Both the position numbers and the translations under genes were made by a program. The notes beneath the pieces are model-generated. The model did not search any database and was not told where the DNA came from. It saw only the letters and a program-made list of their open reading frames with translations. From NCBI RefSeq assembly GCF_000026545.1, contig NC_011601.1: a stretch of 64,000 bases of DNA, one strand, 5' to 3'. This DNA is from Escherichia coli O127:H6 str. E2348/69. Its GTDB lineage: Bacteria; Pseudomonadota; Gammaproteobacteria; Enterobacterales; Enterobacteriaceae. Each line of letters starts with the position of its first letter. Position 1 is the first letter of the stretch. This document shows positions 25,455 through 64,000 of this stretch, piece after piece.

Positions 25455-25613
25455 ACGGGGTAATGCTTTTTACTGGCCTGCTCCCTTATCGGGAAGCGGG
25501 GCGCATCATATCAAATGACGCGCCGCTGTAAAGTGTTACGTTGAGAAAAATGAACTGGTTGCGTAATTTTCATCCGTAACGGATTAAAGGTAACCAGTTA
25601 TTTTTGCTGGCGA

Positions 25614-26456
25614 TTAAAGAATAATCGTCCGATTACCGTAAACAAAGACGCGCTGCGCCAGTACTTTGTATAGCGCACGACTTAAGACGTTTTTCTCGAC
25701 GTCACGACCTGCGCGCATCATATCTTCAGCTGTGTAGGTATGATCGACATGAATAACGTCCTGCATGATGATTGGGCCTTCGTCCAGATTGTCATTCACA
25801 TAGTGAGCGGTTGCGCCAATAATCTTCACGCCACGCTCATAGGCCTGGTGATAAGGACGTGCGCCGATAAACGCTGGCAGGAATGAATGGTGAATATTGA
25901 TGATCTTATTCGGGAAGCGTGCCACAAATTCCGGCGTTAATACCCGCATATACTTCGCCAGCACCACATAGTCAGGTTGATAAGCATCAATGGCATCCGC
26001 CATCTTTTGATCGTGCTCGTTGCGGCTTAACCCTTCATGGCTTACCAGCTCAAACGGAATATCAAAACGCTCAACCAGAGAACGTAAAGTATCGTGGTTA
26101 CCAATAACTGCCGCGATTTCGACATCCAGGCCGCCGTAATTGGCTTTCATCAACAAATCGCCAAGGCAATGCGCTTCTTTAGTGACCAGAATCACTATCC
26201 GGCGACGACCGGCAGGATTCAGCTCACGCACGGAGCCTTCTGGCAATGCGCTATCGAGATCCGCCAGCAGGGTGGAATCATTAAAAATCCCTTCCAGTTC
26301 CGTGCGCATAAAAAAGCGCCCGGTACGATGATCTACAAATTCATTGTTCTGCACGATATTTAACTCGTGCTTGTAGCAAATATTGGTAATACGTGCGATC
26401 AGACCTTTTTGGTCCGGACAAATAGTACGCAGAACTTTACGTTGGAGTGAATGCAT
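25614..26456 (-). CDS. purU: Formyltetrahydrofolate deformylase
   Basis: 280 aa, N-terminal ACT domain plus formyltransferase domain. Confidence 0.95.
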   Translation of the reverse strand: MHSLQRKVLRTICPDQKGLIARITNICYKHELNIVQNNEFVDHRTGRFFMRTELEGIFNDSTLLADLDSALPEGSVRELNPAGRRRIVILVTKEAHCLGDLLMKANYGGLDVEIAAVIGNHDTLRSLVERFDIPFELVSHEGLSRNEHDQKMADAIDAYQPDYVVLAKYMRVLTPEFVARFPNKIINIHHSFLPAFIGARPYHQAYERGVKIIGATAHYVNDNLDEGPIIMQDVIHVDHTYTAEDMMRAGRDVEKNVLSRALYKVLAQRVFVYGNRTIIL

Positions 26457-59699: not shown

Positions 59700-60122
59700 G
59701 TGGCAAAAGTTTTTACACAAGAAGAGCGGGAAAAAATTAAAGGGCAGGTTGTTGAACTCGTACGCCAGAGTGGGCGCGAGACGTTACGACAACTGGAAAC
59801 TAAAACTGGGGCAACAAGATATCTGATGAGCGTTCTGGCCAGAGAGCTGGTTGCCAGTGGCGATGTATACAACTCTGGTTACGGGTTATTCCCGTCTGAA
59901 CAGGCGCGTAAGGACTGGCAAAATGCCCGTAAAAAGCTCTCAAGGGCAAAGCTGAAGAAACCATCTGCGGTTGATCCGGACCTTATCTGGTCATTACCTG
60001 ACGGAGAAATACGTCGCTACGACAGGCGTCAGAACATAATCTGTCGCGAGTGCCGGAAGAGCGAAGCTATGCAGCGCGTACTGGCGTTTTATCAGGGGAA
60101 TTTTGAGGAGGTGGTGCGGTGA
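59700..60122 (+). CDS. Hypothetical protein in the P/helicase-loader position
   Basis: 140 aa, GTG start, basic, CRECRK motif; no ATPase motif seen. Confidence 0.45.
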   Translation: MAKVFTQEEREKIKGQVVELVRQSGRETLRQLETKTGATRYLMSVLARELVASGDVYNSGYGLFPSEQARKDWQNARKKLSRAKLKKPSAVDPDLIWSLPDGEIRRYDRRQNIICRECRKSEAMQRVLAFYQGNFEEVVR

Positions 60123-60365
60123 GTGAATCAAAATGCCAGGTTAATGGCAACAAGATAGAACCATGTGCAGCACTGGCAAAGTCCCTTGAGCGTGATGCTG
60201 AATACACGATGCGAAAAGGTCTGCTGATATACAAAATCTGAAATGAGAGTTTAACTCGCGGTCCTGATTTTGTGATGTTGCGTTCCGGTGAATTTTCTAA
60301 ATTACCAGTTCGGGTTTCATTTTGTCCGTTCTGTGGTGAAAGTCTGAAAACGTGGGAGAACAGAA

Positions 60366-60677
60366 ATGAATGAAATTAAAGAAATACCAGTAGTACGTGA
60401 TGAATATGGCTGCTGGACGCATCCTGAATATGAAAAATTCTGTGACGGTCGGGAATATATTTCAACGGAAGAGTTTAACGCCTGGATGGAGGAAAATAAT
60501 CTTCAATACGTCCTCTGCTTCAGAGATGAAGGATGTGCTGACCTTGATGCGTGTGATGCTGATATTTCTGCATGGGAACCGGAACGACCAGAGGGCAATG
60601 GATGGTTTATTGGTTCAATACATGACACCGAAGATGGCCCGGTTTGTGTATGGCTGAGAAATAAGGTCGAAGCATAA
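60366..60677 (+). CDS. Hypothetical acidic Cys-containing prophage protein (nin-region type)
   Basis: 103 aa, strong ORF with good start context. Confidence 0.5.
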   Translation: MNEIKEIPVVRDEYGCWTHPEYEKFCDGREYISTEEFNAWMEENNLQYVLCFRDEGCADLDACDADISAWEPERPEGNGWFIGSIHDTEDGPVCVWLRNKVEA

Positions 60678-60809
60678 AGGCTATAAACCGACTAACAACT
60701 AAATACTGAAGATTTAAATCAGAAACGATTTTTATTAAATCCTTAACCGGAGGGATTCCTGCACCCTCAAATCATCAGGAGGCCGCCCGAAAGGGCGGTG
60801 GAGATAATA

Positions 60810-61331
60810 ATGGGAATAACTAAAGAACGATTGTTGGAAATAGCAAACCTTAGTGATTGGGCATTAAGTGATGAGAGAATTGTTTCTCCTCATGCTTATG
60901 AGTCAGTTACAAGTATAGAAATAACAACAATGGCTAGAATGCTGCTTGGTTATTTCAAAATAGAAAATAAAAAACAGATGGATAGTAATGTTGATATATG
61001 TGAGATTTTAGACGATTGGGGGGCTTGGGTTGTGGCTGGTAATAGTTCTATTGATTGGCAGGAAATAGCTGATAAATATAAAAATGTTGTTCCTCATGGT
61101 AAAAAATCACGTCGTCAGTGCAGCAATGATGAAGGGCGAATTATTGACATTAGTATCCTTAGGTTAGAAAGATATAAGCAACAAGAATATGAGTTAATTG
61201 TTGCTCATTTCGTGATTGGTTTATCTCTTCGTGCTATTGCAAAGCAACAAGGATGTTCAGATGGAACAATTCGTAAAAGATTGCAAAAAGCCTTAGGTTT
61301 TTTGACTGGATATATAGCAATTACCAGTTAA
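60810..61331 (+). CDS. Q: Late-gene antitermination protein Q (933W/H-19B-type Q family)
   Basis: Matches recalled 933W-type Q: WGAW, SRRQCSNDEG, and C-terminal HTH GLSLRAIAKQQGCSDGTIRKRLQKALGFL. Confidence 0.75.
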   Translation: MGITKERLLEIANLSDWALSDERIVSPHAYESVTSIEITTMARMLLGYFKIENKKQMDSNVDICEILDDWGAWVVAGNSSIDWQEIADKYKNVVPHGKKSRRQCSNDEGRIIDISILRLERYKQQEYELIVAHFVIGLSLRAIAKQQGCSDGTIRKRLQKALGFLTGYIAITS

Positions 61332-61969
61332 GAGTCAGCGGTTTTTTTACCAGTGTAATGGTATAAGGATACTCCCATGTGTCTTACATGATATGGAAGC
61401 GCTGTTGCTGGATGCTTTGTGATACTCTTAAAGCGGAGGGGAGAGCCTTCCGCTTCAATTTCTGCGTCCGAAACGGTCGTAGAGAAAAATTCTTTCCATT
61501 CATTGAATTTTACTGCTGATTTGTCAGACTTTATATAAATTAGAATTCCTCCATGATCGTCACGTGACGTACCCGTGCCGTAACGTTCGGTTAGCTGAAT
61601 CCAGCCATTATGAATAGATTTGGGGCCTCTCCATAATTTTGCTTCACCGATCCATTCGAATTTTCCGAATTGATGTTTAACTAATAAATCAACGTGACCG
61701 CCATGTTGAGTATCATGTTCAACATCATAAAACCTACCTTTCAGGAAATTTTTGATCGACGCTGTTAGCTCGTCCTCTCCCCACTTAGCATCTTGATAGA
61801 AGTGTTTGTCATTTTCTAAATTCTGAATAGCGTCGTCTAAATCTTCATAGAGTTGCTTTACAAAAATATTTTTGTCTGCAGCTAATTTTCTTTGAACCAT
61901 TCCCCTAAATTCAGGATCCATTCTAATTAATGATTGAAGGTCTGCAGTACAGATGTTTACATCACTCAT
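61328..61969 (-). CDS. Cassette gene C: predicted PD-(D/E)xK-like nuclease (213 aa)
   Basis: ATG 61969 overlaps stop of gene B; motif GEDE...HVDLLV...EWIGEAK (E, D, ExK spacing typical of restriction-endonuclease fold); AT-rich. Confidence 0.6.
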   Translation of the reverse strand: MSDVNICTADLQSLIRMDPEFRGMVQRKLAADKNIFVKQLYEDLDDAIQNLENDKHFYQDAKWGEDELTASIKNFLKGRFYDVEHDTQHGGHVDLLVKHQFGKFEWIGEAKLWRGPKSIHNGWIQLTERYGTGTSRDDHGGILIYIKSDKSAVKFNEWKEFFSTTVSDAEIEAEGSPLRFKSITKHPATALPYHVRHMGVSLYHYTGKKTADS

Positions 61970-62390
61970 GCAGACTCTCCAAAAGACTCGAAGGAGTAAA
62001 GTATGGATAAAGATACTGGCTAAAATTATCAACCAATTCGCCAGTTTCTGGATGGTAAAAACTTCCTGTGTCTAAAGCATAGGAAATAAGATCATCTTCA
62101 ACTGGTATTGGTTCTTCCGTTAAATTATCAATGTATTGAAAATGCATATCCAATAGATGTGCTTTATAGCTAGATAAATAATCAGTTGCTTTTATTAGCA
62201 GGATATAGCCATCTTTCGTATCAGTTAGATAGGTTAAACCATTGATAAGGGTTTTGTATGTAAAGTGATTGATATTTTTAGCATCTTTACTAACCAGAAA
62301 AAGAAAAAGATCACGACACACACTGCGAACAGGATCATTAAAATCCTGCTCTATTTGCGTGATAATGTCGTGATATATACTCTTTTTCAT
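61962..62390 (-). CDS. Cassette gene B: hypothetical protein (142 aa)
   Basis: ATG overlaps stop of gene A (ATGA); no recognised motif; AT-rich. Confidence 0.6.
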   Translation of the reverse strand: MKKSIYHDIITQIEQDFNDPVRSVCRDLFLFLVSKDAKNINHFTYKTLINGLTYLTDTKDGYILLIKATDYLSSYKAHLLDMHFQYIDNLTEEPIPVEDDLISYALDTGSFYHPETGELVDNFSQYLYPYFTPSSLLESLHE

Positions 62391-63478
62391 TTATGGCCTG
62401 ATGATCTCGCTCTTCTTTTCTCTTCACAGGACTTAACAGAATCCAATATTTTTTCAACAATAAATATAATCGAATCAATGTTGTTACAGTTCTTCGCAAT
62501 TGCTTCATGCAACCTAATTCTAGGATTATCAAGCATTGTCCTTTTTCCTGGTAATATTAACTCTACTGATAAAATATGTGAAGAACTTTGTGGTAAATCC
62601 CAAATTTTTCCCAACTTAAACTTTGTCAATATTGGGCTTGCGGACTCTCCACTATGATGGTAAACATCTTGACGCAAACACTTTTGACTTGGTTTGAGTT
62701 TTAAAGAACTTGTATTGCCATCTGAGGTGATAAAAGATACATGAGAAATTCTGCCATCTACTTTTTCGTAAAGATCTTGTATTGAACCAAATAATTCAAG
62801 AGGATTGTTTAAAATAACGCCAGCTTCTTTTTTTATAAATTTAGCCACAAGGTATTGTTGAGGCTGTGATTCACTTCTTGGAAGGATAGATAAATCAATC
62901 GTAAGAATTAATATTTTTTCTGCAGGCATTAGCATGATGGTATTAAAGCATTGCGTGACTTGGCGTGTTTTGCATTTTATTTCTCCACCATTAGCACGTA
63001 ATTCCATACCCGCATCGCTAAGATGTGTTGGGTCAAGCTCTATCACTTCAGTGTAATACGCTTTGGATAAAAAAACAGCAGTGTCAATTTGTTTATCACG
63101 AATGATATCTTGACGTAGTTCAGCAAAATGCAGCTCAGTATCAGCAACTAACAGCTCCTCTCTGGATAAAGGAATTGGGTATTTTTCTGAGAAGGGGCTA
63201 TTGTCCTTTTTCTGATTTGTGAAAATTGTTTGTAATTTTGCTACGTCTTCATCGGTGATTCTATAAATAGAAAGTAATCGATTCCCGCTAAAAATTAAAC
63301 CTTTCCAGAAATCGTCGATTCTGTCTTTTAGGTCGGGATTATGCTGAACTACACTATTTACACGTTCAATAAAAAGGGGTAATCCTTGGGCCGTTACACC
63401 CAGTGATGAACCAAGAAGCTTACGGGTGTTGCGCCAGCCAAAGCGTGAATTGATGTTTTTTACTGTTTGCTCAAGCAT
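62387..63478 (-). CDS. Cassette gene A: hypothetical protein (363 aa)
   Basis: ATG 63478 preceded by AAGGAAG; no Walker A or other motif recognised; AT-rich. Confidence 0.6.
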   Translation of the reverse strand: MLEQTVKNINSRFGWRNTRKLLGSSLGVTAQGLPLFIERVNSVVQHNPDLKDRIDDFWKGLIFSGNRLLSIYRITDEDVAKLQTIFTNQKKDNSPFSEKYPIPLSREELLVADTELHFAELRQDIIRDKQIDTAVFLSKAYYTEVIELDPTHLSDAGMELRANGGEIKCKTRQVTQCFNTIMLMPAEKILILTIDLSILPRSESQPQQYLVAKFIKKEAGVILNNPLELFGSIQDLYEKVDGRISHVSFITSDGNTSSLKLKPSQKCLRQDVYHHSGESASPILTKFKLGKIWDLPQSSSHILSVELILPGKRTMLDNPRIRLHEAIAKNCNNIDSIIFIVEKILDSVKSCEEKRRARSSGHK

Positions 63479-63824
63479 TAACACTTCCTTAATTTTCCCT
63501 TAACAATTTAGGGTGCTAAACTTTTTTGCGCAGTTTACATAAAAAAATAGTGCGTACGCAAAAACTATCTAACATGATGAGCTTTAACCGGGAAATTTGT
63601 ATATGTTGTGAGCATAAAGTTGGCTGAGAAATCTAAAACGGGTAGAATGACTGCGGGTGCTTGAGGCTATCTGTCTCAGGCATGAACACCAAAAGGCAGA
63701 TAGAGAAAAGCCCCAGTTAACATTACGCGTCCGGCAAGACGCTTAACATTAATCTGAGGCCATATCTATGCTCTACACACGTAGGTTAGCCTCTTACGTG
63801 CCGAAAGGCAAGGAGAAGCAGGCT

Positions 63825-63980
63825 ATGAAGCAGCAAAAGGCGATGTTAATCGCCCTGATCGTCATCTGTTTAACCGTCATAATGACGGCACTGGTAACGA
63901 GGAAAGACCTCTGCGAGGTACGAATCCGAACCGGCCAGACGGAGGTCGCTGTCTTCACAGCTTACGAACCTGAGGAGTAA
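63825..63980 (+). CDS. hokD: Hok/Gef-family type I toxin (HokD/RelF-like)
   Basis: 51 aa MKQQKAMLIALIVICLTVIMTALVTRKDLCEVRIRTGQTEVAVFTAYEPEE; in-frame upstream extension from 63768 (mok-like). Confidence 0.9.
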   Translation: MKQQKAMLIALIVICLTVIMTALVTRKDLCEVRIRTGQTEVAVFTAYEPEE

Positions 63981-64000
63981 GAGACCAGGCGGGGGAGAAT

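Follow-up and report, generated by a model that had tools for sequence, protein, structure and literature searches.

An N-terminally extended Q-family paralogue and a recurrent 12-mer flank an inverted nuclease-containing cassette in a Rac-like prophage of Escherichia coli E2348/69

We analysed a 64,000-nucleotide (nt) stretch of Escherichia coli O127:H6 str. E2348/69 (contig NC_011601.1), referred to here as the window, in which a gene for a Q-like antiterminator runs head-on into an operon of the opposite strand. The locus lies in a lambdoid, Rac-like prophage integrated beside ompW. From left to right it comprises the Q-like gene on the plus strand, a cassette of three minus-strand genes (C, B and A, C being next to the Q-like gene), a 12-mer, GCGTACGCAAAA, that contains the palindrome GCGTACGC, and a hok/sok-type locus (Table 1). 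The original prediction held that the Q-like gene is the late regulator of the prophage, that the cassette leaves no room for a late promoter directly after it, and that either this promoter was displaced to 63479-63760 or Q-dependent read-through runs antisense across the cassette and could silence it.

The open reading frame (ORF) of the Q-like gene runs from an ATG at 60810 to a TAA at 61329-61331, by direct reading and in RefSeq alike. An alternative GTG start at 60798 was judged less likely, and position 60781, the left end of the span originally given, belongs to a hairpin and not to the gene. The product, WP_000513135, matches Pfam PF06530 with an E-value of 9e-32 (109.9 bits against a cut-off of 26), a family that corresponds to Q21/Q933W in the naming of Yin et al. 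(bioRxiv 10.1101/651190). In PHROGs it is assigned to phrog_79, 'antitermination protein Q-like'. It is 37% identical to the Q protein of phage 933W over residues 62-171, and a phmmer search found a distant match to the Q21 structures 6P18 and 6JNX (E 6e-4). The earlier assignment to the Q21/933W family is borne out by the Pfam, PHROG and 933W matches.

The protein consists of an N-terminal extension (residues 1-60), which forms a PHROG of its own (phrog_3323), and a Q core (residues 62-171) with a putative helix-turn-helix (HTH) resembling sigma region 4; residues 119-165 give sub-threshold matches to Sigma70_r4_2 (E 1.6e-5) and to an extracytoplasmic function (ECF) sigma profile (E 3e-8). 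Homologues of this long form, 170-181 amino acids (aa) in length, are found in E. coli and Salmonella at 65-96% identity. A larger group of short forms, about 115 aa long, shares about 60% identity with residues 62-173, and its HTH segment is almost invariant. The 60-aa extension is specific to the long forms and strongly conserved. Between E. coli and Salmonella copies of 65-75% identity, the pairwise ratio of nonsynonymous to synonymous substitution rates (dN/dS) is 0.2-0.4, both in the N-terminal 60 residues and in the core. The gene is thus intact and not a non-functional remnant: it is a second gene of the Q family, kept under selection in the nin (early-right) region of a Rac-like prophage. 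Since no promoter-like site was found on the plus strand upstream of it, it is probably transcribed only with the early-right operon. One contig (L044, 6001-6234) carries a version cut to 77 aa. Inside the gene, an antisense promoter-like site (61075-61103, minus strand, TTTACC-17-TATATT) occupies roughly the position of paQ in phage 21; no TTGC repeats of the CII type were noticed on reading this site.

The premise that this gene encodes the late regulator did not survive inspection of the downstream DNA. Instead of being the last early gene before pR', the Q paralogue has a rac22-like gene on one side and hok/sok on the other. Some 4.5 kb further downstream, outside the window (window-equivalent 65845-66534; 25546-26235 of locus L001), the prophage encodes another Q of 229 aa that matches PF06323, the Q82 family, over its full length (E 3.5e-91). 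The gene order past the window is hokD, a small gene, DUF968, RusA, the PF06323 Q, tRNA-Ile, tRNA-Arg, an insertion sequence (IS), DUF6645, holin, YdfR and lysozyme. Directly 3' of the PF06323 Q there is a promoter-like TTGCAA-17-TATATT, followed by a GC hairpin with T-runs. A second Q (PF06323, PF03589 or DUF1133) was present in 28 of the 30 long-form loci whose sequence extends 5.5 kb or more downstream, the two exceptions having undergone IS-mediated or other rearrangements. We conclude that the gene at 60810-61331 is a second Q copy and that the late antiterminator of this prophage is the downstream PF06323 Q. The IS is an ISEc13 whose transposase gene (L001, 26812-28185) lies between the tRNA genes and DUF6645/holin, where it may uncouple the late promoter from the lysis genes. 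The DUF1133 proteins that occupy the canonical Q position in L010 (10802-11344) and its relatives match PF06530 weakly and may be distant members of the same Q superfamily.

At the other end of the gene, the Q paralogue and gene C (whose stop is the TAA at 61330-61328) converge on a TTAA, their stop codons sharing 2 nt and the two genes 4 nt. No intrinsic-terminator-like site was found at this junction on either strand, and the junction does not fold better than shuffled sequences (z -0.8). The convergent overlap without an intervening terminator, as originally described, is confirmed by reading, by the ORF list, by RefSeq and by the terminator and fold searches. There is likewise no room directly after Q, gene C abutting its stop codon, and no promoter-like site on the plus strand within the 3' end of Q that could serve as a late promoter there. 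The overlap itself is not conserved: relatives show spacings of -25 to +40 nt between the Q stop and the end of the convergent gene, and the TTAA is one of many junction geometries. The two stem-loops reported 5' of the Q start do exist, the second one at 60782-60799 (GCCGCCC-GAAA-GGGCGGU, a GC stem of 7 bp closed by a GAAA loop). The 81 nt that hold them fold no better than shuffles (z -1.07), however, and neither stem-loop is followed by a U-tract. They were also rejected as a part of the Q/cassette unit, the same DNA being found in Rac-type prophages that lack this Q, with homology up to 60808.

The cassette genes A, B and C form a tight, translationally coupled operon, with overlaps of 4 nt (A/B) and 8 nt (B/C). 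In gene C, residues D94, E109 and K111 are invariant; RefSeq places the start of this gene further in, at 61921. Gene A has no match in Pfam, NCBIfam or PADLOC. For the cassette as a whole we found no significant PADLOC match (the best being PDC-S54, E 0.0016) and no match in Pfam or NCBIfam. The three genes are also found elsewhere. A version of C of about 60% identity lies between a short-form Q and the holin gene in many E. coli prophages, with a C/Q overlap of 25 nt, and a 44%-identical version belongs to a stand-alone three-gene operon beside a resolvase gene in Shewanella baltica; gene B accompanies A and C both in Shewanella and in further E. coli prophages. A/B/C appears to be an autonomous nuclease-containing system and is a reasonable candidate for a defence system. 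The possibility that the Q paralogue is a specific partner of A/B/C was rejected, as the same Q form flanks at least seven unrelated cassettes. Gene A is truncated to 206 aa in two loci, L004 and L028; in ETEC1746, one of the two, the cause is an IS1, with which the 12-mer and hok were lost as well.

Homology with Q-less Rac-type prophages breaks off at 60808 and is regained at about 63641, so that the stretch 60809-63640, with the Q paralogue, the cassette and the promoter region around the 12-mer, constitutes one inserted module. The whole module, Q-like gene and cassette alike, is low in GC (33-40%); the replication genes nearby have about 50%. Cassette swaps fall between the Q 3' end and the 12-mer; between the window and locus L003, homology ends at 61301. 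On the right, the backbone resumes with the hok/sok-type locus, a complete type I toxin-antitoxin system (mok 63768-63980, hokD 63825-63980, promoter-like site 63620-63648) that is 93-97% conserved in many Rac-like and Stx phages. To the left of the module, between a DUF977 gene and the rac22-like gene, RefSeq lists a pseudogene with an internal stop (60119-60373), of which L018 and L019 have intact 84-aa versions.

Table 1. Features of the Q paralogue/cassette locus (window coordinates)
Feature	Position	Strand	Basis or remarks
Two stem-loops	60750..60799	+	5' of the Q-like start; conserved prophage backbone, outside the Q/cassette module
Long-form Q21/933W-family paralogue, 173 aa	60810..61331	+	PF06530, PHROGs, dN/dS
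TTAA	61328..61331	both	Convergent stops of the Q-like gene and gene C; reading, ORF list, RefSeq
Gene C, 213 aa	61328..61969	-	Nuclease, restriction-endonuclease (PD-(D/E)xK) fold
Gene B, 142 aa	61962..62390	-	phrog_11490; 8-nt overlap with the start of C
Gene A, 363 aa	62387..63478	-	phrog_12777; ATGA overlap with B
Promoter-like site	63532..63561	-	-35 TTGCGT 63561-63556, 18-nt spacer, -10 TAAACT 63537-63532
12-mer GCGTACGCAAAA with palindrome GCGTACGC	63552..63563	+	Sole match in the 64-kb window
TATCTA	63566..63571	+	At the -10 (TATTGT) position of relatives; lacks the final T; looks like a decayed rightward promoter
hok/sok-type locus	63641..64000	+	Right conserved backbone flank; HOK_GEF E 4e-23, RefSeq hokD

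We collected 98 loci that encode a long- or short-form Q. All long forms come from Rac-like prophages, in which they follow DUF977/rac22-type genes and precede hok/sok. The short forms are found where Q canonically lies, downstream of DUF968/RusA and ahead of holin or toxin genes, with no other Q there. An opposite-strand gene comes next in about 95 of the 98 loci, and it ends within the -25 to +40 nt range given above. Between the Q stop and the 12-mer, 88 loci carry cargo of some 20 architectures and 47 protein families. Searches with PADLOC and Pfam recognised among them Kiwa (KwaA/KwaB, with E-values down to 5e-144), NsnA, PD-T4-2_A and PDC candidates, a ThsB-TIR protein with a caspase, GmrSD_N with HEPN, RelA/SpoT with NA37, and a C5 methyltransferase. 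The Kiwa (182/309) and the A/B/C cassettes each occur after both long and short forms. Since this varied, inverted cargo includes recognised defence genes, the slot between Q and the 12-mer is a defence hotspot. At the same Rac hotspot, the Q-less L018 (3684-5319) and L020 (7459-9094), which include phage Rac-SA53, carry a plus-strand sce7726-family gene and a minus-strand 'beta family' gene whose 3' ends overlap convergently by 41 nt, with no 12-mer.

The right-hand border of the slot is set by the 12-mer. Counted over 100 loci, exactly one plus-strand copy lies past the cargo in 90, and the motif is absent only from truncated loci and from the Q-less prophages L018-L020. The single match in the window is not significant by itself (expected number 0.47), and it is the positional recurrence in 90 of 100 loci that led us to reject a chance match. 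The association also holds in reverse. When IMG/VR was searched with the exact 14-mer GCGTACGCAAAAAC, chance matches being recognised by missing extended context, all 29 context-positive matches with at least 3.2 kb of upstream sequence had this Q 1-3 kb upstream; the 18 context-less matches with as much upstream sequence were chance occurrences without a Q.

In the short-form relatives the 12-mer is embedded in a longer conserved block, cTAAC-GCGTACGCAAAA-ac-TATTGT-atcgtgt-TAAGAGTGGTTAC...CTTAAAC-CCGCCG...CGGGTTTT. This block comes from an anchored comparison of the loci. Set beside the annotated GenBank record of phage 21, from which the Q-binding element (QBE) was taken, the short-form 12-mer holds the position of that element in the late-promoter spacer. 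In phage 21 the QBE in the spacer is followed by the -10, a start 7 nt later, a TAAGCT pause element from +2, and a terminator. All 19 distinct short-form sequences retain the terminator hairpin and, with one compensatory change, the leader stem. No recognisable -35 hexamer precedes the 12-mer in the short-form late promoter. The comparison of relatives that had been suggested for locating the late promoter thus found a complete late-promoter unit past the cargo in the short-form clade. One locus, L146, is an empty site: the Q stop is followed after 21 nt by the motif, TATTGT, TAAGAG and the terminator, with no cassette. From this geometry, adjacency of Q and the late promoter is ancestral in the clade, and the cargo has been inserted between the two. 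In the same locus (L146, 13413-14598) the terminator is followed by a gene resembling ADP-ribosyltransferase toxins, identified by eye only. In phage Stx1_499 (L102, 7530-9281) the displaced late promoter directly precedes stx1AB.

The window departs from this arrangement. The other long-form types have TATCAA, TTTTGT, TTGAA-like or TCTTAA sequences at the -10 position, and L033 is the only long-form locus that keeps TATTGT together with a pause-like element, TTAGGAG. Between the 12-mer and the hok promoter-like site (63620-63648) the window has neither a TAAGAG-type element nor a terminator. With the -10 degenerate and the pause-like element and terminator missing, the window gives no support for a rightward late-type promoter that functions. 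The notion of a late promoter displaced to 63479-63760 therefore holds for the short-form clade, and a homologous site does lie within that interval in the window, though not as a recognisable late promoter.

On the minus strand the 12-mer reads TTTTGCGTACGC, which supplies the -35 hexamer of the leftward promoter-like site in Table 1, about 45 nt upstream of the start of gene A. Gene A has its own ribosome-binding site, AAGGAAG. The pattern TTGCGT-16/18-TAnnnT recurs in 16 of 24 distinct cassette-side sequences; at control offsets its frequency is 11.5%. The 12-mer may thus double as the -35 region of a predicted leftward promoter used by each incoming cassette. In the long-form loci the 12-mer alone is invariant, and both of its flanks vary with the cassette type. 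This points to a putative protein-binding site, because all 12 bases, including the palindrome, are fixed, beyond the -35 hexamer. The Q form is the only protein common to all loci across the cassette types.

The explanation that we favour, although we hold it with slightly less than even confidence, is that the second Q and the 12-mer frame a swap-in defence slot in which the Q paralogue regulates the cassette through the 12-mer. The Q paralogue would bind the 12-mer and so couple cassette expression to prophage induction; binding is suggested because the recognition-helix region is conserved with the short-form Qs and because this is the only protein that stays constant across cassettes. In the lysogen, the cassette would be transcribed from the leftward promoter whose -35 overlaps the 12-mer, and its transcripts would run antisense into the Q paralogue. 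Upon induction the early operon would fire, and the Q paralogue made from it would occupy the 12-mer and turn the cassette promoter down. With no terminator at the TTAA junction to stop it, early-operon transcription would also continue into the cassette in antisense orientation. The antisense silencing by read-through envisaged in the original prediction is therefore plausible, and it would have no need of this Q, because transcription of the early operon would already be antisense to the cassette. We are least certain of the step in which the cassette promoter is repressed and not activated.

Several observations weigh against regulation of the cassette by the Q paralogue. The known role of Q proteins is antitermination, not repression. 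The phage 21 element is a direct repeat and the 12-mer a palindrome, so the mode of binding may differ. A -10-like hexamer is missing at the expected spacing in the NA37-type loci L010, L038 and L039, and also in the short-form types L071 and L098. Q-less prophages have convergent cargo at the same hotspot without any Q frame. Finally, an AlphaFold 2 model of the Q paralogue, built on a 26-sequence alignment, was unusable, with a predicted local distance difference test (pLDDT) score of 43.6.

Two other readings give the 12-mer or the Q paralogue a different part at this locus. The Q paralogue could be a relay antiterminator that loads on RNA polymerase starting rightward at the 12-mer; terminator-resistant transcription would then restart past the inverted cassette and proceed through hok/sok, DUF968 and RusA to the late Q, so that a cassette could sit inside the early operon without breaking it. 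The homology of the 12-mer to the QBE position of a genuine late-promoter unit in relatives fits such a role, as do the 60% identity of the Q core to the short forms with its HTH residues conserved, the TATTGT and TTAGGAG retained in the long-form locus L033, and a hairpin after hok on the way to the late Q. We nevertheless consider a relay unlikely: the rightward -10 is degenerate in the window and in most long-form types, no pause-like element or terminator precedes the hok promoter, and no relay is present in Q-less Rac-type prophages, where the late Q is reached through the same hok locus. Somewhat less likely again is that recombination with short-form phages brought in the cassettes along with the Q and promoter DNA on either side, so that the Q paralogue would have no role here and the 12-mer would be kept merely as the -35 region of the cassette promoter. 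Passive import would account for the finding of the Kiwa 182/309 and A/B/C cassettes after both Q forms, for the decayed rightward promoter and for the truncated Q paralogue of contig L044. It agrees poorly with a dN/dS of 0.2-0.4 across E. coli and Salmonella copies of 65-75% identity, with the strong conservation of the long-form-specific 60-aa extension, and with the invariance of all 12 bases where a -35 hexamer would fix six.

The Q paralogue might instead act in trans, on the 12-mer late promoters of co-resident or superinfecting short-form phages, and induce these phages prematurely or block them. Q proteins do act in trans, and short-form phages with an identical 12-mer are common in E. 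coli and other Enterobacteriaceae. Yet production of the paralogue would be confined to times of early-operon activity, we found no separate promoter for it, and action on other phages leaves unexplained why the 12-mer is retained beside the cassette in every long-form locus; we regard this reading as improbable. The least probable, and largely refuted, is the reading from which the analysis began, in which this Q is the late antiterminator and its promoter was displaced to 63479-63760. Its family assignment was correct, a displaced promoter is the rule in the short-form relatives, and the motif lies inside the predicted interval. It is contradicted by the canonical PF06323 Q, 4.5 kb downstream, with its promoter-like site, terminator-like hairpin, tRNAs and lysis genes; by the hok/sok and nin-type genes, rather than late genes, that follow the motif; and by the lack of a rightward -10, pause element and terminator in the window.

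More broadly, and with distinctly less confidence than in the favoured explanation, we suggest that the duplicated, N-terminally extended Q and its old site might act as a portable 'cassette holder', with which lambdoid and Rac-like prophages could take up any inverted defence operon under a common promoter and, on induction, shut that operon off or restart the interrupted phage operon, and that the gap between Q and the late promoter might be a major undescribed hotspot of enterobacterial prophages in which Q binding couples late-gene activation to defence shut-off. The locus is also a likely annotation trap, in that 'Antiterminator Q family protein' does not mark the late switch of the prophage here. 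A simple search rule follows, namely this Q clade, inverted cargo and GCGTACGCAAAA; in 88 loci it yields about 20 cargo types, mostly unannotated and including A/B/C, and is a cheap source of candidate anti-phage systems. The locus offers a testable link between the classic Q/late-promoter switch and the control of prophage-encoded immunity, and shows how phage operons can accommodate, and perhaps control, inverted cargo. Where members of the clade carry a toxin gene immediately behind the displaced late promoter, as Stx1 and other toxin-converting phages do, the cargo and its divergent promoter may affect toxin expression.

Taken singly, the elements of the locus are all known: the protein family, prophage cargo in convergent orientation, shut-off by antisense transcription, and defence hotspots in phages. 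A literature search of incomplete coverage, which leaves prior description possible, found no description of a hotspot in the Q/late-promoter gap whose cargo shares a divergent promoter with the Q site, and no N-terminally extended second Q paralogue that keeps its site in the nin region. The closest regulatory parallel is phage 21, with its Q21 of the same family (PF06530) and its pR' with QBE, pause element and tR'. The short-form relatives share its geometry throughout: site in the spacer, -10, start 7 nt further on, a TAAG-type element at +2, leader and terminator. Unlike Q21, the window gene is a second copy in the nin region with a 60-aa N-terminal extension, and its candidate cognate site lies 2.2 kb away, past an inverted operon. 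That site is the palindrome GCGTACGC rather than the direct repeat ATTGAGCA/AATGAGCA of phage 21, and it comes without the rightward promoter, pause element and terminator.

With respect to antisense transcription, the locus resembles paQ of lambda and phage 21, which runs antisense across Q in lysogeny or its establishment and in phage 21 is annotated inside Q; transcripts of the window cassette likewise meet no terminator before the Q paralogue. Unlike the paQ transcript, the antisense RNA here would be a 3' extension of the cargo operon and not the product of a dedicated, CII-activated promoter. Tha of Staphylococcus aureus prophages is reportedly a related case of an opposite-strand gene. 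The layout of the window, an opposite-strand cassette in a lytic operon without a separating terminator, is that of the 'noncontiguous operon' described for taiEcA of phi80, an opposite-strand defence gene in a Q-controlled operon (PMC11364771). In both, a prophage gene is set against a lytic operon, and for taiEcA it was proposed that shut-off by lytic transcription avoids self-targeting (PMC11364771). Unlike taiEcA, the window cargo lies between a Q gene and the putative site of that same Q and shares a divergent promoter with the site; moreover, the flanking Q is not the late regulator, and no counter-defence gene was identified. Finally, the slot has the conserved flanks and highly variable cargo with known defence systems that characterise the P2 and P4 hotspots (PMC9122126). 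It differs from these in that its flanks are a regulator gene and a cis site, not structural or integration genes, and in that its cargo, in nearly all cases, has the inverse orientation and directly adjoins the stop codon of the flanking gene.

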